Shown here piece by piece: positions 1-59,197 of a stretch of DNA of 64,000 nucleotides. Numbering within the stretch: position 1 is the first letter of the stretch; each line of letters opens with the position of its first letter. The notes below the pieces were generated by a model. That model was not told the DNA's origin. It was given only the letters and a program-made list of their open reading frames with translations, and did not search any database. Made by a program: the position numbers and the translations under genes. The stretch spans positions 32,001 through 96,000 of the forward strand of contig CAVXEP010000025.1 in the NCBI GenBank assembly GCA_963760795.1, in the 5' to 3' direction. The stretch comes from an uncultured delta proteobacterium (GTDB taxonomy: Bacteria; Desulfobacterota; Binatia; UBA9968).

Positions 1-1523
1 GTCCAGAGACTCTTTATCCGAAATGCGGGAAGACGTTCCTCAAACTTGGCGTCGACAGTAACTGGTTCCGCTTCACGAATAATTCGCCAGACGCGCTCAT
101 AGAGCTCTGGACTGATCAAGACTGCTCCGGCCTTAGCTCCCGCACAGAACCTTGCCGCACGAATCACCGCGTCTCCAACAACTGTGAATCCCATAAAGTC
201 CGAGACTCCGAGAAATCCGTTAACAACCTCCCCACAGTGAACGCCGATACCAAAACTGCAGCCACTTCTGCCGCTGTTGGTACGCGCCACGCTCAATTCA
301 TCGATCCTCTTTTGCATATCCAAGGCCGCGAAAACGGCCTTTTCATAATGCATCGGATCGGGCTCCGGGCTGCCGAATACAGCCAATACAGTATCTCCAA
401 CATACTGAATAACTGTACCGTCATGGGAAAATACCACCTGCGTTAAAGCGGCGAAATAGGAGTTGAGCAGCTCGACGACATCTTCGGGCTCCATAGATTT
501 GCTCAGCTTGCTGAAACCGCGAATATCCGCGAAAAGGATCGTTACGTCCCCTCGTTCACCACCGGATGGAAACTGACCCCGATTCTTTAGCAATCTTTCC
601 GCGATTTTCGGGGGGAATTGACGAAGTAGATTTGCTTTAGCCGTAGACTCCCGGCGCAATTCCTCTTGCAGCGTGTGATTCGCGACAGCCAACGCGGCAT
701 GCTGAGCGATGGCCACGACTAATTTCAGATCGTCCTTGCCGAAAACATTCCCGCTCAGGTAATTGTCTACGCATATCACCCCAAGCGCGTGCCCTCGCCA
801 CAAGAGTGGCGCATAGATAGCACAATCTACCGACACCAACGCCTGAGTCGAGTTCGGATCGCTATGACTGGGCTGCCAGAGGAAGGCAACTTGATCTGTC
901 AACGCACGTTGCGCCAAGGTCATACTGACGGCCGGTTTGCCTGGAGGCACATGAGCCTTCAGCCGTAATGAGTCTGACAGCGGATCCTTTAGAACGATCG
1001 CGGCACGGGAACCTCCATGAATGGCTTCCACGAGCCTCCGAACGACCATTGTCAAAAGTGCATCAACGTGAACTTCGCTACCAAAGCTGAGAGGCAAATC
1101 ATATAAGATGGCTAGGTGGTGCTCGTGACTAAGCCGGCTGTTTTCCCCAAACGCGTATACAGGGCGTGTCGCGTTGAGGGTCAAGGTAATATTGGAGCTA
1201 TCATTCTCTGTCGACAATTCGGACTCTGCCGACAGTTGTATAATGGTGTCACCGATCGTGATCCGGTCAGCGGCTTCCACGACTTTCTGTGAGCCTGGCG
1301 CGAGCGCGACGCCATTTAGTAATGTCCCATTTCTACTGCCAAGATCTTCGATCCAACAACGCCCGTCATTTCTCCAAATCCGTGCGTGACGGTGCGATAC
1401 CAATCGGTCAAATCGCAAATCGAGATCGACGTCAACGCCTCCCTCGTGGCGTCCGACAATGATGTCGTCACCAACGTCCATCTCTTCACTCAATATGCCT
1501 TTGTATGAAAATCCGACGCGCAT
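1..1523 (-). CDS. FHA-GAF-class III nucleotidyl cyclase (3' end runs off the window)
   Basis: Hand translation from the ATG at 1523 gives FHA motifs (VGRH...VSHRHARI...DLGSRNGTLLNG), a GAF-like middle and cyclase motifs (VTILFADIRGFS, QYVGDTVLAVFG, FGIGVHCGEVV, FTVVGDAVIRAAR). Absent from the ORF track because there is no stop inside the window. Confidence 0.9.
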   Translation of the reverse strand, partial: MRVGFSYKGILSEEMDVGDDIIVGRHEGGVDVDLDLRFDRLVSHRHARIWRNDGRCWIEDLGSRNGTLLNGVALAPGSQKVVEAADRITIGDTIIQLSAESELSTENDSSNITLTLNATRPVYAFGENSRLSHEHHLAILYDLPLSFGSEVHVDALLTMVVRRLVEAIHGGSRAAIVLKDPLSDSLRLKAHVPPGKPAVSMTLAQRALTDQVAFLWQPSHSDPNSTQALVSVDCAIYAPLLWRGHALGVICVDNYLSGNVFGKDDLKLVVAIAQHAALAVANHTLQEELRRESTAKANLLRQFPPKIAERLLKNRGQFPSGGERGDVTILFADIRGFSKLSKSMEPEDVVELLNSYFAALTQVVFSHDGTVIQYVGDTVLAVFGSPEPDPMHYEKAVFAALDMQKRIDELSVARTNSGRSGCSFGIGVHCGEVVNGFLGVSDFMGFTVVGDAVIRAARFCAGAKAGAVLISPELYERVWRIIREAEPVTVDAKFEERLPAFRIKSLW

Positions 1524-1861
1524 GGCAGAATCTTAGGACACCACGAAAACCCCTCGAACGCTAATATCGATCCACGTTTCCCTTGCAGAGCATTGCCGAG
1601 ATCAATGAAAACGTGATTCCAATTAGCCTAAGACGAAAGAATTGTCTATCGCAGCCATAGCTATCCCAAGGACCGTTGGAGACCTAGTTCCAATATGGTT
1701 TGTATACAACGGTCTAGTAGCGATACCCTCCGTTCCAAAGCGGCGGGAGGGGCAAGTCTTCTTCCGGCAACGTCCCCCGCCATCCATGGCAATTTTACTC
1801 TCAGTTATCCTGTGGTCCGAATTACTGGGAAGCGAGGCTCACTCTTACCTCCTTAGAATCT

Positions 1862-1906
1862 CTCACTTTCTATTCCGTTTTGTCTCATAAGTAAAAACAC
1901 TGGTCA
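1862..1906 (-). mobile_element. Orphan IS3-family left end
   Basis: Reverse complement TGACCAGTGTTTTTACTTATGAGACAAAACGGAATAGAAAGTGAG matches the IS end at 11161-11205 at 38/45 positions. No transposase follows it. Confidence 0.7.
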
Positions 1907-2235
1907 AAAGCTCTCGCATGGCCTTGGTCGTAGATTGACTGCCATCGACTGGAGAGAAAAATGAAGAAAGCGAGGGGGGATGTGATCAGCTCACCCCTCA
2001 GGTAGGGTGGTGTGGCACAAAGAAGTCAATCGGAGGGAAAGCAACCACACAGGTTTGAAACCGGTATCAAGCAGCAAATCATTCAGAAAGTGGCATTCGA
2101 CCCGTTATCGGTCTGCATCGCCAGTCGCAACACCCTGATCTCGGACCGCTTGTTGATTGTTGGTGTATCCCGTTCCAAGAGCTTCGGGCGTACTTTTCCT
2201 TGCCCATAAGTCAGAGCTTGTGGCCTATAGACGGT

Positions 2236-3073: not shown

Positions 3074-3847
3074 CTATTCGCGGAGTTTTTCCTCGATCTG
3101 CAATTTGAGGCGATCTTCCATTTTTGCGACCTCGTCAAAATCAATAAGTTCGACAAACGCCGGGACTCCCGACAACCGAGTCGCCCCCAGAAGAATTTCA
3201 TCCCGGGGCCGAAAAGACGGTAAAACTGAAGTGATCGTGACCAGGGGAAGGTCGCCTAATCCTGCACATGTATCTATCTTAATGTCGTAACGCAGATCGT
3301 TTAGTAACCGGGTGATCCCGGGAAATTTCGCGATGACATACTGCATGACCAGCGCATTGACCAAGAATTGCCGCACCTCCTCTGGCCGGCGCTCAACCTT
3401 TCCCGCTATCGCTTGTCGGAGTTGGGAAAGCGTATACCCCGAAGTGTAGCTGAGAGCCCAGCGCAAGGGTGACGTCATTGTCATCGTCTTGGATTCTTTT
3501 TCATTTTTCGCTTCGTGAGTATATTCCCAGGGGTAAAGCTCAAAGCGGCTTTCCATCATCGCCACTACCGCTTCATCCAGCTCTGGAACCAGCGCAAACG
3601 GCTTACCGCAAATCTCTTTGTACTTATCTCGTACCCGTCTAAAAGCAGCGTCCGCACCGATTACGTCTTCCTTCACTGAGGAACGGACATAGTCACCTAG
3701 CAGCCGGCGTGGTGCCAATAGCGGTCGGAGCGTTTCTAGATGGCCCCGCAGCTGGCTTAGCAATAGGCCAGAAACCGTCTCGGTTTTTGCCCGTAGCTCT
3801 GCTAACTGTTCAATTCTTAACGTATCTCGAAAATTGCCATCCGCCAT
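3074..3847 (-). CDS. Hypothetical protein (257 aa), divergent from the sheath-fusion gene
   Basis: Long ORF with natural globular composition; no recognisable motif. Confidence 0.75.
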   Translation of the reverse strand: MADGNFRDTLRIEQLAELRAKTETVSGLLLSQLRGHLETLRPLLAPRRLLGDYVRSSVKEDVIGADAAFRRVRDKYKEICGKPFALVPELDEAVVAMMESRFELYPWEYTHEAKNEKESKTMTMTSPLRWALSYTSGYTLSQLRQAIAGKVERRPEEVRQFLVNALVMQYVIAKFPGITRLLNDLRYDIKIDTCAGLGDLPLVTITSVLPSFRPRDEILLGATRLSGVPAFVELIDFDEVAKMEDRLKLQIEEKLRE

Positions 3848-4207: not shown

Positions 4208-5738
4208 ATGGCCACACGATCTTTTGCTGGCAACGTCAAGGTCAATTTAGTTTCTGAGTCCGAAGACGATCGTCCCTTGGCGGACCCGGAAGCTCCATTC
4301 CACGTCGCGTTATTGGGCGATTTCAGTGGTCGGGGCAATCGTGGCATTGTTGAAACAAGCAGCGCCCTGACCAGCAGGCACGTTTATCCGATAGACCGGG
4401 ATAATATTTTAGAGGTTATTAGCGCAGCTCAAAGTTGAGGTACGTATACCCATCCTAGGAAAAAATTCGCCGCCGATCAGTTGCCGCATTTCGGACGTAG
4501 ATGATTTTCACCCCGACCGTCTCTTCGAAAATCTCGATGTCTTTCAAGCCTTGAAAGAAACGCGCGAAAGCTTCAATGATCCTGCGACATTCGCGACGAT
4601 CGCAAAACAAACGGTCGCATCCACCAGTACCCCGAGACCCGCCGAGCCCGCTAAGGAGACCAAGACCACCAGCAATCTTCTCGACCAGATTCTCGACGCA
4701 ACAGCAAATCAGTCGCCGACAGCGAAAACCCGGCCACCGTCCGATTTAGACGACTTCGTCAAAGAAATCGTCACTCCCCACCTGGTCGCGAAACCTGATC
4801 CCATGCAGACCGACTTCGTCGCCAAAGTGGATACCGCCATCGGTGAAATCATGCGCCGGATCTTGCATCATCCTGATTTTCAAGCCATTGAGGCTGCTTG
4901 GCGCGGAGTATATTTCCTCGTATCGCAACTGGAGACCAACGAAAATCTCAAATTATTCTTGATCGACATATCCAAAGCGGAGTTGGCAGCCGACCTGCTC
5001 ACGGCGGATGAAATTACCTCCACTGGAGCCTACAAGCTACTGGTAAAACAACCGGCGGAGACGAGCGGTGGTGAGATTTGGGCGGTTTTGGCTGGAAACT
5101 TTATTTTTGACCAGACCCGTGTCGATACAGCACTGCTCAACCGTTTGGCCAAGCTGGCGCGCGCAGCGGGCGCACCATTCATCGCGGCGGCACATTCGCA
5201 CATACTCGGCTGCGATTCTTTAGCTGAGACGCCCGACCCAGACGACTGGAGACTGACAACGGATAACGAGACCCAAGAGGCGTGGGCCGCTCTTAGAAAA
5301 CTTCCTGAAGCCTCATCTCTCGGTCTCGCCCTGCCCAGATTTCTGCTCCGTCTGCCTTACGGTGAACAAACCGATCCGGTCGAGCGGTTCGATTTCGAGG
5401 AAATGGAAGCCACGCCAAGGCACGAAGAATACCTATGGGGCAACCCCTCGTTCGCATGTGTTTACTTGCTCGCCCAGACCTTCAGTCAATATGGTTGGGA
5501 TTTTCACTCCGGCATTGTCCACGAGATTAGCGGCTTGCCGCTCCACGTCTACAAAGTGCAGGGCGAATCACGGATCAAGCCTTGCGCGGAAGTAGTCCTA
5601 ACCCAGCGTGCCGCCGAAGCGATACTGGATCAGGCCGTTATGCCGTTCCTGTCGTTTATTCACCAGGACCTTTTGCGATTGGCGCGCTTTCAATCATTTG
5701 CCGATCCTCCGACGACTCTAAGTGGACGATGGAGATAG
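4208..5738 (+). CDS. TssB-like/TssC-like fused sheath paralogue, interrupted by frameshift(s) at ~4420-4500
   Basis: N-terminal part PFHVALLGDFSGR...IDRDN is TssB-like. Downstream ILHHPDFQAIEAAWRGV, APFIAAA, PRFLLRLPYG and YLWGNP are TssC-like. It ends at LSGRWR without the TssC C-terminal domain. Confidence 0.8.
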
Positions 5739-5904
5739 AATCAGAAGAAACGGCTTTGTTTATTAGAAAATGATAATCAAAACGAAACCGAACAACAGGC
5801 ATTGGTCAATTGGGGTTTGAGACGTGAAAAAAATCATTGAGAACTATTCTGTCAGCCTGACACGATTCGGCCGCAATGGTTTTCTTTTCCGATCAATCTA
5901 TGGG

Positions 5905-6663
5905 ATGCAGTGGGATTTTGTTAAAATCGTATCCGTTGTGGCTCTATGCGGTTCGTTTGCATTTGCTCAGGATCGGCCGGCGCTAACTCTCAATCAGATC
6001 AGCGAATTACTGAAAAACGGTGTCAGTTCGACCCGTATCGCTCGGTTGGTTGAACAATATGGAGTTGGTTTTGGATTAGACGAGGCTGCATTAAGGCGAC
6101 TTAGGGCGGATGGGGCAGATGAAGTTCTTTTGTCCACGGTGAAAAGAATGGCTGTTCGATATACTGAGGAACAGCAGCGCAGAAAGCGATTGGACTCGGA
6201 AAGGAAAAAGCAAGAAGAGGCAAGACAAGCTGTAGAAGTTAAGAAAAGGGCACAGGAACAGACGCAGCTGGGAGAAGTAACAAAGCAAAGACCGCAGAAA
6301 GGCACCGCCGCGACTTTGATGACCCAGGAAGATGTCGGTCGAGTCGCGAGCCTGCGCAACGTGATGAGTACGGAAGGGGGCGAAGTATCCGGAGACGTGG
6401 TTAACAATTCGAAACAGACGCTGCGCGACGTTCAACTGCAAATCCTTTATTCCTGGCGCTGGAACAATGAGTATCAGCCGGGCAAGGACGACCCGGGAAG
6501 GGCCTCTTATTATGTCCTTGACAGGGAAATTCTGCCTGGCCAGACTGTCCGTTTCAACTATAAACCGTCCCCGCCTTTTGCTCCTCGCGCAGATGGTCAA
6601 TTCGATATCAGCGTAAAGGTTGTAGGGTTTGCACAGGTATTTCAGCCAGGCGCTCAAAGATAG
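5905..6663 (+). CDS. Exported protein: shared ~55-aa helical domain, coiled coil and FxLYD-like Ig-fold C-terminus
   Basis: Signal peptide ending AFA-QD; LTLNQISELLKNGVSSTRIARLV...LRADGADE domain; VSGDVVNNSKQTLRDVQL...ILPGQTVRF. Start set at the ATG at 5905 (ORF track starts at 5824). Confidence 0.75.
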   Translation: MQWDFVKIVSVVALCGSFAFAQDRPALTLNQISELLKNGVSSTRIARLVEQYGVGFGLDEAALRRLRADGADEVLLSTVKRMAVRYTEEQQRRKRLDSERKKQEEARQAVEVKKRAQEQTQLGEVTKQRPQKGTAATLMTQEDVGRVASLRNVMSTEGGEVSGDVVNNSKQTLRDVQLQILYSWRWNNEYQPGKDDPGRASYYVLDREILPGQTVRFNYKPSPPFAPRADGQFDISVKVVGFAQVFQPGAQR

Positions 6664-9514: not shown

Positions 9515-9868
9515 TTAGCAACGATAGTGAACTGGGTTTTTTGCCGCTTCATGGCGAGCAGCGGCTAATAATTCAAGAGCCTCACGTTTAGAGATCAGTG
9601 GAAATTGTTTCTTTGTGGCGAGAAGCGCTTGTCTAAACTCATTCTCGCTAAGCCGCCCTGACTGGCTAAATAATTTTCGCTTTATGTGGTCTTCCAGGTA
9701 CCGGCATGTGAAAAGTCCCCACACCGCGCCGCCTGCTGCACCGAGTAACGTCTGGCCCCCAGCTATGCTGCCGATAGTAGCTCCAATCGCCACTTGCCCA
9801 AACACGCACGCACCGTAAGCTATCGACCGCTTATCCTCCTCAGTAAAAAGCTCGAAGTCCTCTGCCAT
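9515..9868 (-). CDS. Small protein with glycine-zipper-like hydrophobic hairpin
   Basis: AAGGAG RBS; GATIGSIAGGQTLLGAAGGAVWG flanked by two Cys. Confidence 0.65.
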   Translation of the reverse strand: MAEDFELFTEEDKRSIAYGACVFGQVAIGATIGSIAGGQTLLGAAGGAVWGLFTCRYLEDHIKRKLFSQSGRLSENEFRQALLATKKQFPLISKREALELLAAARHEAAKNPVHYRC

Positions 9869-11160: not shown

Positions 11161-11985
11161 TGACCTATTTTTTTATTAATGAGACAGAACGGAGTAGAAA
11201 GTGAGTCGTTCGAAGGAGAGGAACGACATGGAAGCGAAACAGGATGGAGTCAAAAAGGAGCGGCGGATATTCACAGCGGAGCAAAAGTTCGAGATTTTAA
11301 AAGACATCGAGCGATGCCCGACGATCAAGGAAGGATTAACGAAGCACCAGTTGGCCGAGTCGGTGTATTACAAGTGGAAGGGGCAGTTGGAGGTGGGGGT
11401 GCGAGCTTCGTTGCGCAACAGCCGGCCGTTAAAGTCTGCGGATTTGAAACGATTGGAAGAGGAGAATCGTAAGCTCAAGAAGCGTTACTTCGTTACTGAA
11501 GCAGGCGCTTTTGATCAGCGAGTTAAAAAAAGAGATGAGCTTGGATTGATGGGGAGGGGGCGGCATATGGAGAGTCAGAAACAATTAACGCTTGAACTGG
11601 TAGCGACGTATCACAACCAAGGGCGCACCGTGGGTGAAGTGCTGAGCAGCCTGGGAGTGGCGCGATCGAATTACTACCGGTGGAAGAAAGGCCGAACGGA
11701 ACAATCGGCGTCTGTGATCTATGGGCATTTAAAAGCACAGGGGCGGGTCGAGCCGTATCAACGGCGTAGCGCGCCGGTGGCAAGAGCCTCGATACGAGGT
11801 GTGGCAGAGAAATCTTTTGTGAGGCAGCGACTGGACCAAACTCAGTGTCGGTGGAGCAAGGTGGTATTTGCTAACGGTGATCGATTTCTTTTCGCGATGG
11901 ATCATCGCCTGGGAAGTGATGTCCATGCTGAAAATGTCAAAGCGATTTATCAGGCGGGGCTTAGAAGCCAAAAGATAAGTTTTCT
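11161..11985 (+). mobile_element. IS3-family element remnant (left end, OrfA, degraded OrfB)
   Basis: TG-starting end; HTH OrfA (RRIFTAEQKFEIL...YYKWK...LKRLEEENRKLK); A-run slippage tract near 11525; OrfB start LGVARSNYYRW; right end missing. Confidence 0.8.
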
Positions 11986-12192
11986 CTCGGGCGTCTCAAA
12001 CACTACGTGCATGTGGTTGGACATCAGACAATAGGCCAATAGATCGACTTTCTTTTCCTGACAGTACACGGATAGCTTTTCGCGATATCTCTTTCGGTCT
12101 TGATCATCACGGAAGATCGCTTGGCGGTTATTCCCTCCGCAAATAACGTGGTAGACCGCCGCAGGATATTCTATGCGTAGGGCTCGCGGCAT
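11985..12192 (-). pseudogene. RAYT (Y1 HUH) transposase, N-terminal fragment
   Basis: MPRALRIEYPAAVYHVI...AYCLMSNHMHVVFETP (HUH motif). Confidence 0.85.
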
Positions 12193-12358
12193 AAACATTT
12201 TCTACAAGAAGCAGTCCGGAATGCCATAGATTAATATATTATATTCAAGCCTGACATTGACGGTCCCCCTAAATCTGAATGAGGCTTGTGGAGCTTCTAG
12301 CGGCTACTTTCGGGGTCGTTGCAATAAACGAACTGCTCAAGTAAGTTGGTCGCTCTCA

Positions 12359-12592
12359 ATGTCCATCAAACAAATAATCCTTACTTGGTGGGCTGAACAA
12401 TGCGGCATGCGGTATCGAAAAATACGCTGGCTGGACGTTTGGCATTTCGATAAAAAATGTCTCGATTTTCCAAAGAGAGACTTTGACGAAATTCTTCACA
12501 CGCCAGAGCATGGTCGCATTTGCCAAGCGTGTGGTCATGATTGGACGTCAAAGAAGGAACGGGACACACATAAATTTGAAGCCGTTGGCTGA
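12359..12592 (+). CDS. Small hypothetical protein with CxxC motif
   Basis: 77-aa ORF MSIKQIILTWW...ICQACGHDW. Confidence 0.4.
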   Translation: MSIKQIILTWWAEQCGMRYRKIRWLDVWHFDKKCLDFPKRDFDEILHTPEHGRICQACGHDWTSKKERDTHKFEAVG

Positions 12593-12974
12593 TAAAGCCG
12601 CTGCTCGCCGGGCTCGCGAGGGTCCGGCGCCTTAACCCAACATCATGTAGGCCACCCAGGAGAGGAATAGAGTCGGGCACCAAAATGCCGATTATCATGC
12701 AGACTATTTCGACAGGGTCCATGCCCCAAGCGTAGCGCAAATATTTCGTTGTTTAAGGGGCTATTTCCTGTCGCCGGGCATGCGCTCCCACTTGCCCTTA
12801 TTCCCGCCTTGTAGTTTATCAAAGACAAACGTCCAAGCTGAGGTGGTCGCGACTACCGTGCCTGGGGCAATCTTAGGGCACCACGCTTCGCCAATGTGCT
12901 GAAGCCCACGATACCCAAGAGGTCAACGACCTCCCACGAGCAGAACCCGTTGCAAGTGGTCTCTTGGCAGCGGA

Positions 12975-13303
12975 TTTCGTCATGGGTGCTGTTCAAGCTC
13001 AAGGGCGGAGAGCCGTTCGTGTTCGCTGGATTATGGGACGCATGGAAAAAACCAGACGGCCAAACACTACGCACCTATACGATTATCACGACCGAACCCA
13101 ACGAGATGCTCGCGCCGGTTCATAACCGCATGCCTGTTATGCTTTGCGACAGCAATGCGCTTGACTGGCTTAAAGGTGGCGAGATCGAGCACGCTCTTGC
13201 CTTGCTTAAACCGTTGCCCGCTGACTTGATGGATGGCTACGAAGTTTCCAAGTTGGTGAACATTCCTTTGAACGACGCGCCCGACTGCATCACGCCAGTT
13301 TGA
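12975..13303 (+). pseudogene. SOS response-associated peptidase (SRAP), C-terminal fragment
   Basis: PFVFAGLWDAW...TIITTEPNE...VHNRMPV...YEVSKLVN; the catalytic N-terminal Cys region is missing. Confidence 0.85.
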
Positions 13304-47750: not shown

Positions 47751-47844
47751 CAAGATGTTCAACTCAGCAAGACAATGCAACCAGGCTAAGGTTTTTCTAA
47801 TGACCGCCTCGTCCGTTGGATGATTTGCGCTAAAGGGAGAGGCT

Positions 47845-49443
47845 TCAAGAGTCGCACCGCGAGTTCGTCAGCCCGCTACGCCGTTCGGCCTGGCAGGCAC
47901 TCTTGGTTTGTTGATATTCGGATTGGACGAGCTTGTTTCTAGGATCGATTGCTTTAGCTTGGCGGAGCGAATCGAACGCAACATCGTAGTTCCCCTTATC
48001 CCGCGAGGACCGGGCGATCTTGATGATCTCATCCACCGTCGGCCCAGGCGGCGGCGCTTTGGCCTTGACGGTCACATTGAAAGCCGCGCTCTCTGCGCCC
48101 TGGTGCTTCACGGAAATCTGCGCTATTCCTTCATTGCGCGCCACCACTTCGCCCTGCCCATTAACGGTAGCTACCGAAGGATTGCTGCTTTGCCACTCTA
48201 AATTCTCAGTAATCGCTGTCTGGGTTCCGTCGCTAAAGTTGCCACTAACCGTTAGCGGACCTTTCTCGCCGACTGCGAGTTCTCGCTGTCCGGTCAATGC
48301 CAGTGCGACAACCTTTCTTGGCGCAGGGTCGTGACTTCCAAATCCACCCATGAACCACAACAAGGCAATAACTAACACAACAGCACCCGCTACTGCCGCG
48401 CCCATAATCGGAAGGCTATATCGCGATGTCTTCGGCAAGTCCTCCCGGTTAAGAATCATGGTCTGTGAAACGGTATGATTCACCGGTACCTCGTCTATCG
48501 CGATGCCGTTCGCCTTCTGTAATCCCTCCACGACCGCGTGCATATCCTTGAGCCGCTTCTGGGGCTTTTTTTCCAGGGCTTGCATGACCAATCGTTCGAT
48601 TACAGCTGGCACCTCGCGGCGTATTTTCCGCAGCGGTGCCGGCTGTTCCTGGAGATGCTTGATCAAAACCGCGCTTGGCGTAGAGGCTTTGAACGGAACC
48701 GAGCCGCTAAGCATTTCATAGAGAACGACTCCCAAGGCGTAGATGTCGGTCTTCTCGCTGATATCCGTGCCTTCCGCTTGCTCTGGAGCCATATAGGCAG
48801 GGGTTCCCATGATCACCCCAGTGCGGGTCAGGTTGGCGGCATTACCAGAATCCATCATGCGCGCGATGCCAAAGTCCATCAGCTTGATTTCTTCAGCGCC
48901 ACGGTGGCCCAAGACCATGATATTGTCCGGCTTGATGTCACGATGAATGACTCCGGCCAAATGCGCTGCTTCGAGCCCTTCCGCGATCTGGAGGCCCAGT
49001 CGGACCGCCCGCCGAATTTCCAGTGGGCCGTCGTGCCGGACTACATCGCTCAGCTTTGCACCCTGCAAAAACTCCATGGCAATGAACAAGCTGCCATCAT
49101 TACCCTGGTCGAAATCGTATATGGTGACGATATTTCGGTGGTTGAGCGAGGCGGCCAATCGAGCCTCCCGGCGAAATCGGCCGATAAATTCATCGTCGTT
49201 GGCATAGTTTCCCTGCAAGACTTTTAGCGCAACTTTGCGGCCTACGCTGATCTGCTCGGCAAGATAGACCGAACCCATGCCCCCCTCGCCGATCTTGCTA
49301 ATTACACTGTAGCGGCCCTTAACAAGTTTGCCTAAATAAGGATCCTCTTTCACCCCGACAATTCGCAGAGTCGCGCCATCGGCCTCACAATGCTCGACGG
49401 CATGTTCGTAGTTTCGTTCGCAAAGTGGACAGTACTTCATCAC
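47845..49443 (-). CDS. Membrane Ser/Thr kinase 1 (PpkA-like): Zn ribbon, kinase, TM, Big_2, TPR-like tail
   Basis: GEGGMG, VALK, HRDIKPDN, DFG, YMAPE; WQSSNPSVATVN (Big_2). Confidence 0.93.
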   Translation of the reverse strand: MMKYCPLCERNYEHAVEHCEADGATLRIVGVKEDPYLGKLVKGRYSVISKIGEGGMGSVYLAEQISVGRKVALKVLQGNYANDDEFIGRFRREARLAASLNHRNIVTIYDFDQGNDGSLFIAMEFLQGAKLSDVVRHDGPLEIRRAVRLGLQIAEGLEAAHLAGVIHRDIKPDNIMVLGHRGAEEIKLMDFGIARMMDSGNAANLTRTGVIMGTPAYMAPEQAEGTDISEKTDIYALGVVLYEMLSGSVPFKASTPSAVLIKHLQEQPAPLRKIRREVPAVIERLVMQALEKKPQKRLKDMHAVVEGLQKANGIAIDEVPVNHTVSQTMILNREDLPKTSRYSLPIMGAAVAGAVVLVIALLWFMGGFGSHDPAPRKVVALALTGQRELAVGEKGPLTVSGNFSDGTQTAITENLEWQSSNPSVATVNGQGEVVARNEGIAQISVKHQGAESAAFNVTVKAKAPPPGPTVDEIIKIARSSRDKGNYDVAFDSLRQAKAIDPRNKLVQSEYQQTKSACQAERRSGLTNSRCDS

Positions 49444-49956
49444 TAAAACCCAGTTAAATCCCAGCCGCTACTTACCAAGTTCCTTGGTTTTTAGCAAAGT
49501 AGCGACAAATAGAAAACCGTCAGCCAATTTGCGACTTAGGCTTCGGCTGACACAAAAACGTCATAGCCCATGGCTGGGAATTGTCAGTAAGTTATCAAAG
49601 ATCATCAAGGCGCTACGGTTTCTGAGACTGCTTCGACTTTCCAAGATTAACTCACGATGTCGCGTTGTCATAAACATCGCCTGTCCTCGAAACAATAACC
49701 GGCTCAGGACAACAAACATCTCCCTTTTGCGCCGATTTGTCGTATAATTACAAACGTTTTGAGTGTATCAGCCCGACATTTGAACGTCGGTTTCGATGGA
49801 TTTTCAATAGACTGTTTTAAAGCTATACTTTGCGGAAGAGGAAGCGATTACTAGGCAAAAAAGAGTTCAGCGCGCTTCGTTGCGTCATGGACAAGTCAAA
49901 CTTTGAGAATAGTTTACGCGCCCCGCGGGCCATCACAGTCTGAATTAGGCAATCCA

Positions 49957-52143
49957 ATGAAAAACTGCCCTAATTGTCATCGACAGTTTAGCGATGACGC
50001 AACCACCTGTGAATTTGACGGCACCCCCCTCGTCGGATCGGCTTCAACGCAAGATCCACTCATCGGCACAATTCTTAACCGCCGGTACAAAATCCTCGAT
50101 CAGATTGGCCGCGGCAGCATGTCGAACGTTTACCTCGCCGAACAACTCCGCGTCGCAAGAAAAGTCGCGGTGAAGCTACTGGCCGAAGAATTTTGCCGTG
50201 ATGAAGCCTGCATCAAGCGCTTCCAGCAGGAGGCGAAAATTGTTTCAAGCCTAGACCATCCGAATCTGATACGGATCTTCGATTTCGACCATACGGACGG
50301 CGGCGGCTTGTATATCGTGACGGAATATTTGCGCGGGCAAACCCTTAAAGCGATCATCGATCGCGGTGCGATCGAAATCCCCAAAGCCGTGCGCTTCGCA
50401 GCACAAATTGCCGATGGCCTTGGTGCCGTCCATCGAGCTGGGATCGTTCATCGCGATCTTAACGCCAAAAACGTGATGGTGATCGATAACGAAACTAAGA
50501 TCACCATCACGGATTTCGGCTTTGCCAGACTGCGCGAAGCGGAGTCCGTCGCAAGACTCACCCAAGTCGGCACCGCTTTGGGCGGTCCTGAATATATGGC
50601 CCCGGAACAGATTGAAGGCCGCGAGACCGACGAACGAACCGATATCTACTCTCTAGGAATCCTGCTTTACCAAATGCTTTGCCATACCCTGCCGTTCACC
50701 GCGCCGACACCGGCCGCCGTGTGGATGCAACACCTAAAGGCCGCCCCCATGCCGCCGACTCAACTACGCCCGGAAATCTCGGCAGAATTAGAACAAGTTA
50801 TTTTACGTGCTTTACAGAAAAATCCTGAACTCCGTTGGCAGGGAATGACGGAATTTGCCGAAGCGATCCGGCACACCGAAAGAGTCGTTGGCCAGAAATT
50901 GTCACCCTCGTCTGAGCATCCGACCTCAGCGCTAGATACGCGGCCAAGGCTAACAGAAATCAGCGACTCACCGGTAACACACCCAGCGGAGGCGTTGAAT
51001 CGCCGCACAGTTCACACCGACGCGAATTTCCGCACTGCCGATGCCGCTCCCCAAACCGTCATCATGGAATCCTTCGATACATCAACCGTCAACTCTGAAA
51101 GCGACAAATCTCGGTACGAATCGGTAAACAGCAACAACCAAACAATGGTACTGACGAAGGCTCTCGAGATCGGCCCACGTCCCGGACGAAATTGGCAGGT
51201 GTGGAGTTTGGGCGCCGCCGCGCTATTCGCCTGTGCTGCGATCGTATGGTTGGGCGTGTTCTCTAAGCCCGTCCCGGAGAACCGACCGTCATCCCCTGCT
51301 GAGGATCCCAGCCGCACGACAGTCAAAGAGTTACCACCAAGTCAGATGGTATCGATTTCTATCGATGCGGAAAAAGCAGTATTGAACCTCGGCGAGGGCA
51401 CGACCCTGCGCTTAAGCGTCCAATACAGCGACGGCTCACGCAAGGCCATCAGCGGCACCGAGCCGATCAGTTGGACCAGCACAGATCCGACAATCGCAGC
51501 AGTGGATTCAAGCGGTGCGGTCAACGCGAAAAAAGTCGGCAAAGCTGAGCTGAAAGCCCGCTATTTAGGCTTGGAGACACAGCTTTTGCCCGTGCAGGTT
51601 AAAGCACCATCGCCATCCCCGGCCGCGCAACCAAAGCTCATTGCCGTGACCGTGAAAGCGGCTAAACGGGATCTGACCGTCAACGATGAAGTTAATTTGC
51701 AGGCAACCGGCATATATTCGGACAAACGACAGTTGGCAATCAAAGCCGGCGTTCGCTGGGACAGTAGTGACCCGAATATCGCGGCTGTAACTGAATCGGG
51801 AACTGTACTCGCCAAAAAAGCAGGACGCGTGGAATTGATCGCGCGCTACGATGGGATCGCTAGCGAACCACTGACCTTGCTCGTCAAACCAGCATCAATG
51901 AAAAACCCAGCCACTATTCAACAGACAAGGAAGCCATTGGCGACAAAAGTGGCCAATACCTCGGAACAAATTAGAAACGCTCGATCTCGACTGGACCGCG
52001 GTGAATACACCGAGGCGCTGGGCGAACTGGAGAAAGCCAGCAAAGTCGATCCCGGCAACAAAGAAGTGCAAGCCGCAATCCTTGACGCCAAACGCGCCTG
52101 CAATGCCGAGCGGGCATTTGGCCGCACCGATCTGAAATGTTAA
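49957..52143 (+). CDS. Membrane Ser/Thr kinase 2 with atypical catalytic loop: Zn ribbon, kinase, TM, two Big_2, TPR-like tail
   Basis: GRGSMS, VAVK, HRDLNAKN, DFG, YMAPE; WTSTDPTIAAVD and WDSSDPNIAAVT. Start set at the ATG at 49957. Confidence 0.9.
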   Translation: MKNCPNCHRQFSDDATTCEFDGTPLVGSASTQDPLIGTILNRRYKILDQIGRGSMSNVYLAEQLRVARKVAVKLLAEEFCRDEACIKRFQQEAKIVSSLDHPNLIRIFDFDHTDGGGLYIVTEYLRGQTLKAIIDRGAIEIPKAVRFAAQIADGLGAVHRAGIVHRDLNAKNVMVIDNETKITITDFGFARLREAESVARLTQVGTALGGPEYMAPEQIEGRETDERTDIYSLGILLYQMLCHTLPFTAPTPAAVWMQHLKAAPMPPTQLRPEISAELEQVILRALQKNPELRWQGMTEFAEAIRHTERVVGQKLSPSSEHPTSALDTRPRLTEISDSPVTHPAEALNRRTVHTDANFRTADAAPQTVIMESFDTSTVNSESDKSRYESVNSNNQTMVLTKALEIGPRPGRNWQVWSLGAAALFACAAIVWLGVFSKPVPENRPSSPAEDPSRTTVKELPPSQMVSISIDAEKAVLNLGEGTTLRLSVQYSDGSRKAISGTEPISWTSTDPTIAAVDSSGAVNAKKVGKAELKARYLGLETQLLPVQVKAPSPSPAAQPKLIAVTVKAAKRDLTVNDEVNLQATGIYSDKRQLAIKAGVRWDSSDPNIAAVTESGTVLAKKAGRVELIARYDGIASEPLTLLVKPASMKNPATIQQTRKPLATKVANTSEQIRNARSRLDRGEYTEALGELEKASKVDPGNKEVQAAILDAKRACNAERAFGRTDLKC

Positions 52144-52168: not shown

Positions 52169-52981
52169 CTATTTTTTTTGAAGCAGATCGACCTCTTCCT
52201 CAATCGTCCGGCCGACCGATTCTAAGCCAACGATGAATTCTGGACGATCCGTCCTTTTGTTGACAATCATGACGAGGCTCGCGTCCACCCGCGCGCTGAT
52301 CAGTTTGCGGCCATCCCAGCCGCGATTTGACTCGGTTTTTCTCACCGCTGTGTGCCAGCTCTGTATCTCTTTCAGCGCACGCTCAATATCTCTCACCGCT
52401 TGTTGACCAGGGCTGCTTAACGCGACGTTCAATCGCGCTCGTCCGCTCGCGCGAATTTGCGCGATTAACTCGTCGTCCGCGCCGGCGCGGCGTAACTCCT
52501 TCTCGCCATCGGCGTTCAAGTCAAAACTTGCCCCTCGCTCTTTCACGAGAGTCGCAACCCGCTTCGGAGAAACTCTTTCTTTTAGAATAAACAGAACATC
52601 ATTCAGCGCAAACGAGTTATCGGACTTCGACGCCGGCGCAGGCCCGGCTTCGCGAAAGGCAATAATGCCAAGGTAGAGCCGGGCCATGAAGTCGCCACCA
52701 TCGCGCTTTAATCCCTGAGCGAGCGCATTTCGAGCATCGGCAATTCTACCGGCATCATAGTAAGCTCGTCCCAGATAGGTCCAAATGCTTTGCCGGAGCG
52801 GCGGAGTATCAACAACATAGTCGGGCTGGGCCACCGCAATGCGCTCGAAGTGGGAGATCGCGACATCCGCCTTGCCGGATAATAACGCAGTGCGGCCCGA
52901 CTGGGACTCCTTCGCTACTTGAATGCCACAGCCGCTGAAAAATGAAATTACAAAGATCGAGTAAAGTAGTCGTTTTAACAT
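52169..52981 (-). CDS. TPR lipoprotein carrying the shared ~55-aa domain
   Basis: MLKRLLYSIFVISFFSGC lipobox; TPR WTYLGRAYYDAG; FALNDVLFILKERVSPKRV...LRRAGADDEL. Confidence 0.8.
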   Translation of the reverse strand: MLKRLLYSIFVISFFSGCGIQVAKESQSGRTALLSGKADVAISHFERIAVAQPDYVVDTPPLRQSIWTYLGRAYYDAGRIADARNALAQGLKRDGGDFMARLYLGIIAFREAGPAPASKSDNSFALNDVLFILKERVSPKRVATLVKERGASFDLNADGEKELRRAGADDELIAQIRASGRARLNVALSSPGQQAVRDIERALKEIQSWHTAVRKTESNRGWDGRKLISARVDASLVMIVNKRTDRPEFIVGLESVGRTIEEEVDLLQKK

Positions 52982-53424
52982 CTTCAACCTCTCAACAGAG
53001 TGTAAGATATTTAACAACATGGAGGCAAACAATTGGCGAGAGCTGCTGAGCCAGCGATTAATTTGCTATGAACCGGTAACAATGAAAAAACCCATCGCGG
53101 CCACAACTTGCGACGCCATAAAGAATACTAAGAATTTGCATCACTATATAGTGAAGCCAATAAATATGTTGACATAAATCACCCACTCCTTAATCCCCTC
53201 CAGTCGGAGAGTGTGTCGTAACTGTCATTCTGAAGCGAAGCCGAAGAATCTCGTCTTCGTAAGTGACAGGAATGGGATATCTTCGCGCTACCACACAGTC
53301 TCTTTCAGGAGGGGTAAGCAAACTTATTTTATAACCGTCACTATTGCCCAGGATTTCAATGTTTTTTTCGAAAACGAGCCTGACGGCCAAATAGACGAGG
53401 CACGACTGAGCCGCGGATTTAACA

Positions 53425-55236
<1,812 letters not shown>

Positions 55237-56197: not shown

Positions 56198-57001
56198 ATG
56201 AGCGCTAAAGAGCTATTCGACGCCGGCAACCTCAGCGGCGCCATCGAACAGGTGACTCAAGATGTGAAGTCCAACCCGCGCGACCTCAAAAGCCGGATCT
56301 TCCTGTTTGAGTTGCTCTGCTTCGCTGGCGAGTTTCAGCGGGCGCAGCGCCAGCTTGACGCCGCCGCCCAGACCAGCGGCGATGTTAAAATCGAAATGGG
56401 CGCTCAAGCCTATCGGAACCTGCTTGAGGCCGAAAAACTGCGCCGGGAGTTTTTCACCGGGGCGCACAAGACGCCGAAGTTTTTTTCCGAACCGCCGGCC
56501 TACACCGCGCTGCATATCGACGCGGTCGGGAAATTGCACGGCCAGGAGTGGGACGCCTTGGAACAATTGATGGAACAAAGCGCCAGTGTTCGCCAGCCGC
56601 TCTCGGGACAATGCAACGGCAAAGCATTCAGTGATTTTCATGATGGTGACGATCTGCTCAGTCCGTTTTTAGAAGTGCTTTTCCAGAGCGATTATTATTG
56701 GCTGCCGCTGGAACAGATCGAGCGCGTTGAAATCCCCGCGCCAACCACGCTGCGAGATCTCCTCTGGACGCCGGCCAATGTCCAACTAAGTGACGGCCCC
56801 CTCGGCGATCTGCTGATACCGGCGCAATATTATGGCTCCCACGAGAATCCCGACGATCTGGTCAAACTCGGCCGAATGACCAATTGGAATTCTGTGGGCA
56901 ACGATCATCTCTCGGGGCTGGGACAACGGACGTTTTTTGCCGACGACACCGAATATCCGCTGCTCGAAATCAGAACTCTCGAATTCACCGCCAAATCTTA
57001 A
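56198..57001 (+). CDS. tagJ: TagJ/ImpE (SciE) T6SS accessory protein
   Basis: VKSNPRD...RIFLFELLCFAGEFQRAQRQL; DGDD...FLE...YYWLP; PTTLRDLLW; LGRMT.W; GLGQR. Confidence 0.92.
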   Translation: MSAKELFDAGNLSGAIEQVTQDVKSNPRDLKSRIFLFELLCFAGEFQRAQRQLDAAAQTSGDVKIEMGAQAYRNLLEAEKLRREFFTGAHKTPKFFSEPPAYTALHIDAVGKLHGQEWDALEQLMEQSASVRQPLSGQCNGKAFSDFHDGDDLLSPFLEVLFQSDYYWLPLEQIERVEIPAPTTLRDLLWTPANVQLSDGPLGDLLIPAQYYGSHENPDDLVKLGRMTNWNSVGNDHLSGLGQRTFFADDTEYPLLEIRTLEFTAKS

Positions 57002-57077
57002 CTTGCCTCGTCGCCTTTCGACCGTCTGATTGTTGGATGCAAGACAACCCCGAATACTGCGAGGAGAGCCCGACTGG

Positions 57078-58301
57078 ATGAGTAAATCGCCACCCAACTT
57101 CAGCGCCGACAAGTCTTCCACCTGGTTGAAAAAGGGTATGGAGACTTTGACGCGAATGAATCGGGTCATGGTTCCGTCATCAAAAGTTGGCGGGAGCGCT
57201 AATCCGTTACGCGAGATATTTTCGGACCTGATGGCATTTATCATCTTTTTCGAAAGCTACTGTGAACAAAAGCCGCCTGAGTTGCAGGAATTCAAAGAGC
57301 GCGTGATTTCGTTGATCGCTGCCCAGGAAGAGCGGGCAAAAAGCGCGGGCGTAGCGATAGAAGCATTTCGCGAAGCGCGTTTCGCCGTGCTCTCATGGGT
57401 GGATGAGATCGTTCTCAATTCGAAGTGGCTGCACCGCAGCCAATGGCAGCACCTCATGCTCGCCTATTACGGGACGGTCAACGCCGGGGAGCAGTTTTTC
57501 CGCCATCTGGATGCCTTACCGGCCCAGGCAAACGACATCCGAGAGATATATTTTCTTTGCATTTGTCTCGGCTTTCAGGGCGAGCTGGCTTTCGGCGACG
57601 GTCTTCGCGAACTACAGTCACTGAAACAACGCATCTACAAACAGCTAACCGCCAATGGTCAAGACATTCGACAAAACTATCCGCGGCTATTTCCCGAAGC
57701 TTATCAAAAAGCCAACGCCGCGCCCCAGGCGGCAGCCAAATCTAATCGGCTATGGTACATCACGGCAGGCGCCGTTCCGCTTCTACTTTTCGCGATCTTT
57801 TGGTTCTTGTTGCATCGCGAGGCCAATCGCCATCTGGCGATGCTTGATCGCCCCCAACCCCTCGTAACCAAATGCGATCAAACAAACTGGGCCGCGTCAC
57901 TGGTTGCCGACCTCCGCGGCAGGAGGCTGCGCGCCGTCGATGAACCCGATGGGGTTCGTATCATTCTGGAAAGTTTGGTATTCGCCGTCAGTAGCGCAGA
58001 GTTGAATCCGCAGGCAGAGGCTAGGATCGCCGATATTGTCAGCACTGTGAGGTGCTATGCACCGGACAGAGCCATCACCGTAGAAGGCCACGCGAGCAAA
58101 GAACGCGATGGGGACGAGGCGCGTAATCGGAAACTGTCCGAAGATCGCGCCCGAACGGTTGCTGACGCATTTGTCCGAATCGGCTTCAGCCGAGAGAAAA
58201 CCTCCGCGCACGGGTTAGGCAGCTCCAAACCGGTCGCGTTGAACGATACCGAAGATGGTCGCAGTCAAAATCGTCGCGTCGAGATCATCGTCAAAAAATG
58301 A
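57078..58301 (+). CDS. tssL: TssL (DotU) with C-terminal OmpA peptidoglycan-binding domain
   Basis: ARFAVLSWVDE, NAGEQFF, LCICLGFQG, TM helix, VEGH...NRKLSEDRA...NRRVEI. Start uncertain (57030-57168). Confidence 0.93.
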   Translation: MSKSPPNFSADKSSTWLKKGMETLTRMNRVMVPSSKVGGSANPLREIFSDLMAFIIFFESYCEQKPPELQEFKERVISLIAAQEERAKSAGVAIEAFREARFAVLSWVDEIVLNSKWLHRSQWQHLMLAYYGTVNAGEQFFRHLDALPAQANDIREIYFLCICLGFQGELAFGDGLRELQSLKQRIYKQLTANGQDIRQNYPRLFPEAYQKANAAPQAAAKSNRLWYITAGAVPLLLFAIFWFLLHREANRHLAMLDRPQPLVTKCDQTNWAASLVADLRGRRLRAVDEPDGVRIILESLVFAVSSAELNPQAEARIADIVSTVRCYAPDRAITVEGHASKERDGDEARNRKLSEDRARTVADAFVRIGFSREKTSAHGLGSSKPVALNDTEDGRSQNRRVEIIVKK

Positions 58302-59197
58302 GCCTAACGACTTCACAGCTTAAAGTCGCTGCATTCGGCATGTCCGACGTCGGTCGCGTGCGCACCAACAATGAGGACAACTACCTTTTTACCCAACTTG
58401 GTAGCGGCTTGTTCAATGCGGTGTCACCGGACTGCACCAAGGGTGATAATCAGTGGATTTTTATCGTCGCTGACGGCATGGGCGGCGGCCAAGCCGGTGA
58501 AGTAGCCAGTCAGTTGGCAGTAGCAGGCGTAGCGCAACGTTTTGCCGAACAACTGACGGGGGAGAAACAGTTGACTCAACAGGTATTCGCCAAGGCCTTA
58601 ACCCATGCAGTCGAAGAAACGAATCGATCGATCTTCCAGGAAAGCCAGGAAAACCAAGAACTAACTGGAATGGGAACGACTCTAACCGCAGCTGCCGTGT
58701 CCGGCACGATCCTGACAGTCGCCCAACTCGGAGACAGCCGAGCCTATCTGCTACGGGATGGGAGCATTACGCAATTGACCAAGGATCAGAGTCTCGTCGC
58801 TCAAATGGTCGAGGCAGGCAAAATCACCCCCCAAGAAGCCAAGACTCATCCACGCCGCAACGTCGTCCTGCAGGCGATGGGCGTGCTACCGCGTGTAGAT
58901 GTCGCCATCGCTACCGCGAACTTAAAACGGAACGACCGCATGGTGCTTTGTAGTGACGGTCTTTGGGGCAAAGTCGAACCCGAGGAGATCGTCGAATTTG
59001 TCCATCGCTTTGAACCTCAAGCGGCGTGCGAGAGCTTAGTCCGGCTGGCCAACGAACGTGGCGGCGAGGACAATGTCACAGTCATCGTCGCCAATTTCAC
59101 CGGTGATGGGATATCGGAAACCGATGAGACTAAGGTTCCCACCCTCGAAATCGTCAAGCAGAAGCGCTCTTGGTGGGGTTTTTGGAAACGACGTTAA
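58298..59197 (+). CDS. PP2C-family Ser/Thr phosphatase (PppA/Stp1-like)
   Basis: SDVGRVRTNNED, VADGMGG, MGTT, GDSRAY, LCSDGL, GGEDNVT; ATG overlaps the tssL stop. Confidence 0.95.
   Translation: MSLTTSQLKVAAFGMSDVGRVRTNNEDNYLFTQLGSGLFNAVSPDCTKGDNQWIFIVADGMGGGQAGEVASQLAVAGVAQRFAEQLTGEKQLTQQVFAKALTHAVEETNRSIFQESQENQELTGMGTTLTAAAVSGTILTVAQLGDSRAYLLRDGSITQLTKDQSLVAQMVEAGKITPQEAKTHPRRNVVLQAMGVLPRVDVAIATANLKRNDRMVLCSDGLWGKVEPEEIVEFVHRFEPQAACESLVRLANERGGEDNVTVIVANFTGDGISETDETKVPTLEIVKQKRSWWGFWKRR

Follow-up and report, generated by a model that had tools for sequence, protein, structure and literature searches.

The 64,000-nucleotide stretch of DNA analyzed here (positions 32001–96000 of contig CAVXEP010000025.1 in assembly GCA_963760795.1, hereafter the window) comes from an uncultured bacterium whose genome totals 6.58 Mb in 35 contigs, is 88.9% complete with 6.15% contamination, and encodes a type VI secretion system (T6SS) in this window. 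We consider it probable that this system is a horizontally acquired T6SS-i island of an undescribed sub-lineage from uncultured soil and groundwater bacteria, in which four changes relative to its nearest relatives occur jointly, firing would be gated by phosphorylation, and the complex would be held by peptidoglycan. These changes are 1) TssJ is gone, 2) TssM is shortened so that it ends just past its helical periplasmic domain, 3) TssL has gained an OmpA anchor, and 4) an FHA domain is fused to the N terminus of TssM, where it would replace the free Fha/TagH protein. Carriers of the sub-lineage are labelled Binatia, "Deltaproteobacteria" metagenome-assembled genomes (MAGs), and Methylomirabilota/Rokubacteria.

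When about 60 window open reading frames (ORFs) were scanned against Pfam, with NCBIfam also used, 12 of the 13 T6SS core families were present, and only TssJ was missing. This is what an earlier sequence-only reading of the window had claimed, and the FHA-TssM fusion, TssL-OmpA, three paralogous kinases, PP2C phosphatase, and FHA-cyclase that it listed were all found as well (Table 1). The core is a minus-strand operon that runs FHA-TssM, TssK, TssA, TssB, TssC, Hcp, S-adenosylmethionine (SAM) methyltransferase, TssE, TssF, TssG, ClpV, and VgrG, followed on the same strand by a pair of DUF2169 genes and then by an Rhs toxin gene that is flanked by a hydrophobic PAAR-like candidate and a possible immunity gene. 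To the right of this core lie a frame-broken beta-barrel-like gene, a lipoprotein, a protein with a transmembrane (TM) segment and an E/K-rich region, and the three kinases with a TPR lipoprotein among them, and the plus-strand right end encodes TagJ, TssL-OmpA, and PP2C. The best PDB match of TssC is 9n4v (711 bits), and it scores 557 bits against chain 5n8n_B, which we take to be Pseudomonas aeruginosa TssC1.

The absence of TssJ extends beyond the window. In the whole source genome, the best scores were 13 bits for PF12790 (cut-off of 27) and 11.7 bits for TIGR03352 (cut-off of 31.6), and the 20 kb to the left of the window contained no tssJ among the 10 ORFs scanned. TssJ exceeded the cut-off in none of the 10 other genomes with FHA-TssM. 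The nearest non-FHA relatives of this TssM are 70 Desulfobacterota-type loci, with 25 to 29% identity. As a control, TssJ was detected in all five of the nearest non-FHA genomes tested (52 to 69 bits), where its gene is directly upstream of tssK-tssL-tssM, and a tblastn search with these five TssJ proteins found the protein in 56 of the 70 Desulfobacterota-type loci versus 0 of the 10 FHA-type loci. The 14 Desulfobacterota-type loci without a match have mostly little upstream DNA, with L086 having a full flank.

Could this be an ordinary TssJLM system in which tssJ was overlooked, either because it is too divergent for hidden Markov models or because it lies in the 11% of the genome that the assembly lacks? 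In favor of this are the shortness and variability of TssJ, a genome completeness of 88.9%, and the presence of two unnamed lipoproteins in the locus, at 45475–46089 and 52169–52981. However, TssJ is over the cut-off in 0 of 11 genomes versus 5 of 5 sister-type genomes, where it is always beside tssK, and the part of TssM that would dock TssJ is absent (see below). The lipoprotein at 45475–46089 was rejected as a hidden TssJ since its AlphaFold2 (AF2) model, which is middling with a predicted local distance difference test (pLDDT) score of 60 and a core at 72 to 83, is helical and matches nothing in the PDB, including TssJ structures, at E ≤ 0.001. When the ORFs of the fetched related DNA were clustered, no further unnamed family was present in at least four FHA-TssM genomes, the extra clusters being antisense shadows. 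In addition, a profile search of the whole genome found the VipB family twice, both times inside the window, so there is no second T6SS locus able to supply TssJ. We regard an overlooked tssJ as highly improbable. Separately, two of the related loci encode, just upstream of FHA-TssM, 270- to 293-aa exported Gly-rich and beta-rich proteins with 51% mutual identity (L016:3204–4016 and L017:5702–6583). These proteins were discarded as a candidate shared factor, having no match in the source genome by tblastn or in the other loci.

In the complex of enteroaggregative Escherichia coli (EAEC), TssJ docks on the C-terminal domain of TssM, and this is the part that the FHA-TssM proteins appear to lack. 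FHA-TssM is laid out as an FHA domain, a linker, a TM hairpin, an NTPase-like domain, a third TM helix, and an all-helical periplasmic domain, and the window protein is 66% identical to an intact relative (P0001) over its first 448 aa (446 aligned residues). A search for longer relatives of the N-terminal TssM piece returned 510 proteins among 7997 candidates. Among the 120 matches listed, 37 clusters combine FHA and IcmF-related_N in intact proteins of 1003 to 1183 aa, and none of these 37 contains IcmF_C (PF06744), while canonical TssMs lower among the matches listed do carry it; PF06744 has no match in the source genome either. We nevertheless dropped this Pfam family as a marker because it likewise stays below score in the TssJ-bearing sister TssMs, a point that weakens the case, and the truncation is therefore argued from length and profile alignment. 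On length, TssM ORFs end 1 to 28 aa past the shared homology in 6 of 6 FHA-type loci and run on for 139 to 242 aa in 12 of 12 Desulfobacterota loci. On alignment, hhalign placed the FHA-TssM profile (35 sequences) on residues 1–1077 of a 1193-aa canonical TssM that has PF06744 and on positions 1–1063 of a 1180-aa Desulfobacterota TssM, and it placed the Desulfobacterota TssM profile on residues 1–1193 of the same canonical protein. By these alignments, FHA-TssM is without the last ~115 residues of canonical TssM, the seat of the TssJ-docking domain. TssJ and the TssM dock have been lost jointly in the FHA-TssM lineage.

The AF2 model of P0001 (pLDDT of 79.7) shows the same architecture, with an FHA beta-sandwich (1–100), a disordered linker, a TM hairpin, an alpha/beta NTPase-like domain, a third TM helix, and an all-helical periplasmic domain (597–1073), followed by ~60 residues to the end at 1138. 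The FHA part of the model matches phospho-threonine–binding FHA domains in fold (Z of 17), and the periplasmic part matches EAEC TssM 6ixh_P (Z of 14.5, root-mean-square deviation of 5.7, 320 aligned residues, chain residues 575–1109), the one TssM row for this domain in a search with the whole 1138-aa model that was dominated by FHA matches. By sequence, the FHA-TssM family matches no solved TssM chain. In the FHA domain, the GR, SxxH, and NGT positions, which presumably serve phospho-threonine binding, are invariant in 35 of 35 sequences.

TssL is of the long form, with DotU, a TM helix, an OmpA-like peptidoglycan-binding domain, and a Thr-bearing N-terminal extension, and its gene is 14 kb from tssK in the window. 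Full-length TssL-OmpA is encoded in 8 of the 10 FHA-TssM genomes, whereas OmpA is found on TssL in 0 of the 70 sister-type loci. The N-terminal motif of the extension, S-[ST]-W-x-x-K-G-x-x-T-[IL]-T-R, is preserved, apart from minor substitutions, in seven of the nine sequences aligned, the most divergent being L107 and L108. The three paralogous receptor kinases each have one TM helix and a periplasmic part, which includes Big_2 in two of them, and kinases 1 and 3 share 65% identity across the kinase domain. All three have a CxxC...C zinc-ribbon–like motif ahead of the kinase domain and a conserved ~55-aa TPR-like C-terminal motif with two cysteines on the periplasmic side. TagF (PF09867) was not found in the source genome (best score of 15.7 bits).

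We wondered how conserved and how widespread this arrangement might be. A scan with one genome per species (185,579 genomes) identified 10 FHA-TssM loci (L011–L020), the FHA part of L018 being established by a separate locus comparison. Their record titles read Candidatus Binatia, Deltaproteobacteria MAG, one Verrucomicrobia MAG, and NC10/Rokubacteria/Methylomirabilota. The gene order FHA-TssM, TssK, TssA, TssB, TssC, Hcp, TssE-F-G, ClpV is conserved across these loci, with kinase(s), TPR lipoprotein, PP2C, TssL-OmpA, and TagJ on the opposite side where the fetched DNA extends. ORF clustering of the window with the 10 genomes found the kinase family in the window and seven genomes and PP2C in the window and six. 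Surveying the neighborhoods of FHA-TssM homologs, as the earlier reading had proposed, thus shows that kinase, PP2C, TssL-OmpA, and TagJ travel along with the fusion.

To place the system, we computed a TssC tree (30 rows, LG+G4) from the window, 7 FHA-type loci, 11 Desulfobacterota-type loci, and 11 TssC from 10 named plasmid records; the subtype label that it yields is approximate because the tree is without Acinetobacter or SecReT6 reference sequences. FHA-type TssC form one clade (91/93), present in 92% of bootstrap trees, inside a 99/99 clade of 19 rows that also contains seven TssJ-bearing Desulfobacterota rows, a Ralstonia megaplasmid, Azospirillum p1, and an E. coli plasmid. Identity of the window TssC is 70 to 74% to Geobacteraceae, Desulfospira, and Syntrophorhabdaceae, 68 to 70% to Ralstonia, 65% to Azospirillum, and 57% to group 5. 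According to the accessible part of Bernal et al. (PMC5813230), the Ralstonia system falls in subgroup 4B2, and group 5 is without tssJ and has a duplicated tssC. The Rhizobium etli IE4771 locus has this group 5 architecture (two tssC, tagJ, fha, long tssL, long tagF, kinase, and no tssJ annotated), and its TssC is outside the 99/99 clade, so the loss of TssJ seen here is independent of group 5. By TssC sequence, the FHA-TssM clade is therefore nested among ordinary T6SS-i systems, with the Ralstonia 4B2 type close by and Rhizobium group 5 separate. Of the distinct architecture proposed from sequence alone, the lack of TssJ and the conserved FHA-TssM hold, but a separate T6SS type does not, since TssC is nested in the 99/99 clade. 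The known range of T6SS-i widens to Binatia- and Methylomirabilota-labelled soil bacteria.

As assembled, several genes in the window are broken, which the sequence-only reading had overlooked for TssM, VgrG, and the second DUF2169 gene. TssM consists of ~9 frame pieces with about eight breaks, and VgrG of at least five pieces with at least four breaks (tblastn with the VgrG of G038, one of the related genomes, moves through frames -2, -3, -1, -2, and -3). The second DUF2169 gene is in two pieces with one frame break, the fused sheath-like gene is in two pieces with a break near 4407–4423, and the beta-barrel-like gene (44150–45200) is in several pieces in alternating frames. If these were true pseudogenes, along with their neighbors, the window would contain a decaying, nonfunctional T6SS in which TssJ was lost as part of the decay, which would fit with the transposase and SRAP fragments at 11–17 kb and with the finding of no T6SS in 40 relatives. 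We checked the reading frames over 40200–43800 using Logan contigs from four soil or mine-drainage metagenome runs, which covered at most 0.16 of the words (the whole stretch is in no run, and bins 40805–41167 are uncovered). At all three TssM breaks covered (42356, 42259, and 40624), contigs with 94 to 99% identity have one letter fewer than the window, which restores the frame. Since independent contigs lack the extra letter at these three sites, the frame breaks are most likely assembly errors and the genes intact in the organism, and we infer the same for the five TssM breaks outside contig cover. Decay is also at odds with the good conservation of the TssM pieces (66% identity to P0001, with no in-frame decay), with the intact ClpV, TssF, TssC, TssK, Rhs, and kinase genes, and with the fact that TssJ and the TssM dock are missing also in 10 genomes with an intact FHA-TssM. 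We judge it improbable, and caution that frame breaks in this assembly look like gene decay. The breaks are concentrated in a few genes (24540–26562, 40263–43690, and 44150–45200), and the similar-length ClpV, TssF, Rhs, and kinase genes are clean.

Several lines of evidence indicate that the system is an island. None of 24 same-genus genomes and none of 16 same-order genomes contains VipB (PF05943), and an FHA-TssM probe gave one weak FHA-only match, in a single genome, among 30 relatives (both counts include the unpublished genome G004). DNA of the left flank is 85 to 91% identical to the same-genus genome G011 and 82 to 86% identical to G004. Since this flank matches the genus and VipB is missing from the relatives, the contig can be assigned to the genus, with the T6SS inserted into it. 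Its left edge is marked by carbon monoxide (CO) dehydrogenase genes beyond the FHA-TM-SLT gene, and GC content is 0.49 to 0.55 across much of the locus versus 0.56 to 0.58 for the contigs.

How does this system compare with T6SSs already described? The nearest by sequence, the Desulfobacterota-type and Ralstonia 4B2 T6SS-i, share the order tssA-B-C-hcp-E-F-G-clpV and have a TssM homologous to FHA-TssM over its full length except at the ends. They differ in having tssJ directly upstream of tssK-tssL-tssM, no FHA on TssM, a short TssL without OmpA, and a TssM with the C-terminal ~115 to 240 aa; the Ralstonia locus reads tssJ-tssK-DotU (263 aa), whereas tssJ and a short TssL are both missing from the window. 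Group 5 of Agrobacterium and other Rhizobiaceae, going by the accessible part of PMC5813230, likewise has no tssJ. Its long TssL includes a peptidoglycan-binding domain, and it also encodes TagJ, an additional tssC-like gene, an FHA reader, and both a Ser/Thr kinase and a PP2C-type phosphatase. In group 5, however, Fha is free, TagF and the phosphatase form one fusion protein, and tssC occurs as a tandem pair of full-size genes, whereas in the window FHA is on TssM, no TagF was found, and the extra sheath gene, a VipA-VipB(N) fusion, is 30 kb distant. The P. aeruginosa H1 system resembles the window, as far as the accessible text of the 2026 review PMC13584744 describes it, in its receptor kinase with a periplasmic sensor, PP2C, FHA reader, TagJ with a short TssA, and lipoprotein/periplasmic co-sensors. 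It differs in having TssJ, a free Fha1, TagF, and TagQRST. The sensor domain of the H1 kinase is of the von Willebrand type, and the window kinases instead have Big_2 or repeat regions and the Cys-bearing C-terminal motif.

The best working model for the FHA-TssM system is, by analogy, the Agrobacterium pathway, in which PpkA phosphorylates Thr14 of TssL and Fha binds the phosphorylated Thr14, making secretion active, as stated in the accessible part of PMC3953482. On this model, 1) a periplasmic cue would activate a receptor kinase, 2) the kinase would phosphorylate a threonine on the TssL N-terminal extension (cf. PpkA and Thr14 in Agrobacterium) or on itself, 3) the FHA of TssM would bind this phospho-threonine within the same complex, licensing membrane-complex/baseplate assembly and firing, and 4) PP2C would reset the switch, with the complex being held by peptidoglycan and not by an outer-membrane lipoprotein. 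An FHA in cis would turn the Agrobacterium relay (kinase to phospho-TssL to Fha to TssM) into a single-complex switch and predicts that FHA binds a phospho-peptide of TssL or of a kinase. The phospho-targets and the function of the system are proposed from its likeness to a known pathway.

Several points weigh against the reading of the window as an intact, phospho-gated, TssJ-less island. TssJ is a small, divergent protein and genome completeness is 89%, and a small remnant of the TssM C-terminal region may persist in FHA-TssM, given that the modeled match to 6ixh_P extends over residues 575–1109. Five of the ~8 TssM breaks and all VgrG breaks are outside contig cover, and the three verified extra-letter sites are not homopolymers. 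All carriers are MAGs and their phylum labels are those of the submitters, the kinases are non-adjacent in the Methylomirabilota-labelled loci L017–L020 within the fetched DNA, and the phospho-acceptor residue is our guess, chosen from conservation.

TssJ-less T6SSs, TssL-OmpA, and control by kinase, phosphatase, and FHA have already been published (PMC5813230, PMC13584744, and PMC3953482). The accessible text of PMC13584744 covers the TssJ-less Acinetobacter system (TsmK, TagX, and TslA), TagL, long TssL, TagJ, and the kinase/phosphatase/Fha/TagF pathway. It describes the Acinetobacter T6SS as functional without TssJ, accessory envelope proteins and a peptidoglycan hydrolase compensating; general Pfam scans of the window ORFs, which included no dedicated model, found no TsmK ketoacyl-synthase or TagX-like family. 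The same text contains no mention of an FHA-TssM fusion, and in the literature searched, with most subscription journals beyond reach, we found no description of such a fusion and no paper on T6SS in Binatia or Rokubacteria/Methylomirabilota. We put forward, tentatively, that this is a T6SS membrane complex without any outer-membrane-anchored part, in which TssM extends no further than its helical periplasmic domain, TssL pins the complex to peptidoglycan, a phospho-threonine reader is borne by the complex itself, and kinases gate assembly without an Fha scaffold or a TagF brake, making it an independent third TssJ-less route. If true, this route would fall in phyla in which T6SS has not yet been studied. 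The outer-membrane end of the T6SS channel is presumably made up of TssJ and the tip of TssM. Lineages that drop both together are natural experiments on tube exit and machine anchoring.

Does the island extend to the left part of the window? The left module comprises the fused sheath-like gene, a conserved protein of no named family, DUF922, and the FHA-GAF-cyclase, whose stop codon is two codons left of the window. Directly downstream of the cyclase gene is a gene for a protein that begins with an FHA domain, has a single TM helix, and ends in an SLT domain; this protein is a candidate phospho-regulated peptidoglycan opener. About 10 kb of insertion sequence (IS) debris and unrelated genes (7–17 kb), including transposase fragments, an SRAP fragment, and an aminotransferase, separate this module from the T6SS core, a split that was overlooked when the locus was described as one continuous system. 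In a widened form of that description, the whole 60 kb would be one machine, in which three kinases feed TssM, a cAMP/cGMP cyclase, and the lytic transglycosylase to the left of the window, with a second sheath-like protein and a private envelope module besides. It draws on the presence of three FHA proteins, three kinases, and one PP2C within 63 kb, and on the plausibility of FHA-TM-SLT as a peptidoglycan opener for a TssJ-less complex, a task that MltE and TagX perform elsewhere according to the accessible text of PMC13584744. The fused sheath gene is also located between a kinase and VgrG-ClpV in G038, and a shared domain ties the protein at 5824–6663 to two core-locus proteins.

The comparison with the 10 FHA-TssM genomes gives little comfort to this idea. 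The FHA-GAF-cyclase is full-length in only one (G038, on another contig), so the claimed wiring to a second-messenger enzyme is local to the source genome. The FHA-SLT fusion is in none, no place matching both halves, and the SLT matches in these genomes were set aside as orthologs because they are other enzymes, such as an SLT-LysM protein in G033. The fused sheath gene is in three. The lipoprotein, beta-barrel, and E/K-rich genes have no match in the fetched related FHA-TssM loci, and the proposed envelope module is likewise local to the source genome. A single 60-kb machine interrupted by ~10 kb of debris is thus unlikely, and the extra wiring is an unproven feature local to the source genome. 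The TPR lipoprotein has a 53% identical counterpart in L011 and partial matches in L012 and L016.

The second fused sheath gene is real, with limits of 4208–5738 instead of the 4551–5738 given earlier and one frame break, its N-terminal 71 aa being in another frame. Its intact orthologs (508 to 517 aa; e.g., L096:6461–7987 and L098:6098–7651) combine VipA and VipB. Its divergent neighbor at 3074–3847 is 53% identical to the neighbor of the fused sheath gene in G032. Three exported proteins do share an unnamed domain, as had been noticed, which is ~60 to 90 aa long, without a Pfam or NCBIfam name, and found in ORFs 5824–6663, 46242–47780, and 52169–53032; the first two are 43% identical over 96 aa by blastp. 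An Atlas search with this domain returned unnamed clusters only (scores of 0.81 to 0.87) and was not used. The protein at 46242–47780 is TolA-like in composition, its ~370-residue repeat region being built almost entirely of E, K, R, A, and Q, which produces a local AT skew of -0.44. A search with the lipoprotein at 45475–46089 found 13 clusters at 48 to 100% identity, none with a Pfam family, and this protein has 12 metagenome relatives at 48 to 56%.

Table 1. Features of the T6SS island and its surroundings (window positions unless stated otherwise)
Feature	Position	Strand	Basis
FHA-TM-SLT lytic transglycosylase, 475 aa	source contig 30210–31637 (L009:18210–19637), 0.4–1.8 kb left of window	-	
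FHA-GAF-class III nucleotidyl cyclase, 509 aa	3–1523	-	Pfam FHA 22–91, GAF 154–282, Guanylate_cyc 325–477
Conserved protein, divergent neighbor of fused sheath-like gene	3074–3847	-	no Pfam/NCBIfam family
Fused VipA-like + VipB N-domain sheath-like gene, without VipB_2	4208–5738	+	Pfam VipB 89–375
Exported protein with shared unnamed domain (aa 37–131)	5824–6663	+	one TM or signal segment
Mobile-element debris (transposase helix-turn-helix fragments, IS200-like Y1 transposase, SRAP peptidase C-terminal half)	11201–12034, 12896–13303, 14847–15532, 16070–16795		
Possible immunity gene	16903–17559	-	no Pfam/NCBIfam family
Rhs toxin	17611–21069	-	Pfam DUF6531, RHS repeats, RHS core
Hydrophobic PAAR-like candidate	21077–21880	-	no Pfam/NCBIfam family
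Two DUF2169 adaptor genes	22291–24513 (first 22291–23415; second 23701–24513 + 23418–23918)	-	Pfam DUF2169
VgrG (TssI)	24540–26562	-	Pfam Phage_GPD, Phage_base_V, Gp5_trimer_C
ClpV (TssH)	26679–29264	-	Pfam Clp_N, AAA, AAA_lid_9, AAA_2
TssG	29212–30366	-	Pfam T6SS_TssG 356 bits
TssF	30330–32153	-	Pfam T6SS_TssF 784 bits
TssE	32153–32641	-	Pfam GPW_gp25 76 bits
Class I SAM methyltransferase, HemK/PrmC-like, with DUF7059 + DUF7782	32747–34258	-	Pfam, NCBIfam
Hcp	35000–35482	-	Pfam T6SS_HCP
TssC	35551–37047	-	Pfam VipB + VipB_2
TssB	37062–37586	-	Pfam T6SS_VipA
TssA, short form	37701–38804	-	ImpA_N; TIGR03363 328 bits vs cut-off 161
TssK, likely start assigned	38906–40249	-	Pfam T6SS_VasE 428 bits
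FHA-TssM	40263–43690	-	Pfam on frame pieces
Exported beta-barrel-like protein gene, frame-broken, approximate limits	44150–45200	-	three-frame translation: signal peptide + beta-rich pieces
Lipoprotein, unnamed family, lipobox SGC	45475–46089	-	helical core, not TssJ-like
TM segment + shared domain + ~370-aa E/K/R/A/Q-rich helix-like repeat, 512 aa	46242–47780	-	no family
Receptor Ser/Thr kinase 1: kinase, TM, Big_2, C-terminal Cys-bearing TPR-like motif	47845–49443	-	Pfam, TM scan, paralogy
Receptor Ser/Thr kinase 2: kinase, TM, 2 x Big_2, C-terminal motif	49903–52143	+	Pfam, TM scan, paralogy
TPR lipoprotein with shared domain (aa 121–222 of ORF 52169–53032)	52169–52981	-	Pfam TPR, lipobox
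Receptor Ser/Thr kinase 3: kinase, TM, Pro/Ala-rich repeat, C-terminal motif	53425–55236	-	Pfam
TagJ (ImpE)	56198–57001	+	Pfam ImpE 138 bits
TssL-OmpA	57078–58301	+	Pfam DotU + OmpA; TIGR03349, TIGR03350
PP2C phosphatase, PppA/TagG-like	58298–59197	+	Pfam PP2C, PP2C_2, SpoIIE
Two copies of ~120-bp repeat	L009 (source contig C25) about 9687–9806 and about 12262–12386		

The genes at 16903–21880 would form an effector module, the PAAR-like and immunity roles being suggested by gene position. The SAM methyltransferase gene (32747–34258) lies between Hcp and TssE, and a gene for a protein with 35% identity occupies the same spot in L011 and L016. Between the CO-dehydrogenase genes there is a ~120-bp intergenic repeat, which occurs in many copies (84 to 93% identity) in the source genome and several same-genus genomes (e.g., G006 and G008) and looks like a repetitive extragenic palindromic (REP) or miniature inverted-repeat transposable element (MITE)-type element. 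Finally, directly beyond the PP2C end of the island is a gene pair (60271–61690) encoding an extracytoplasmic function (ECF) sigma factor and a zf-HC2 anti-sigma factor.

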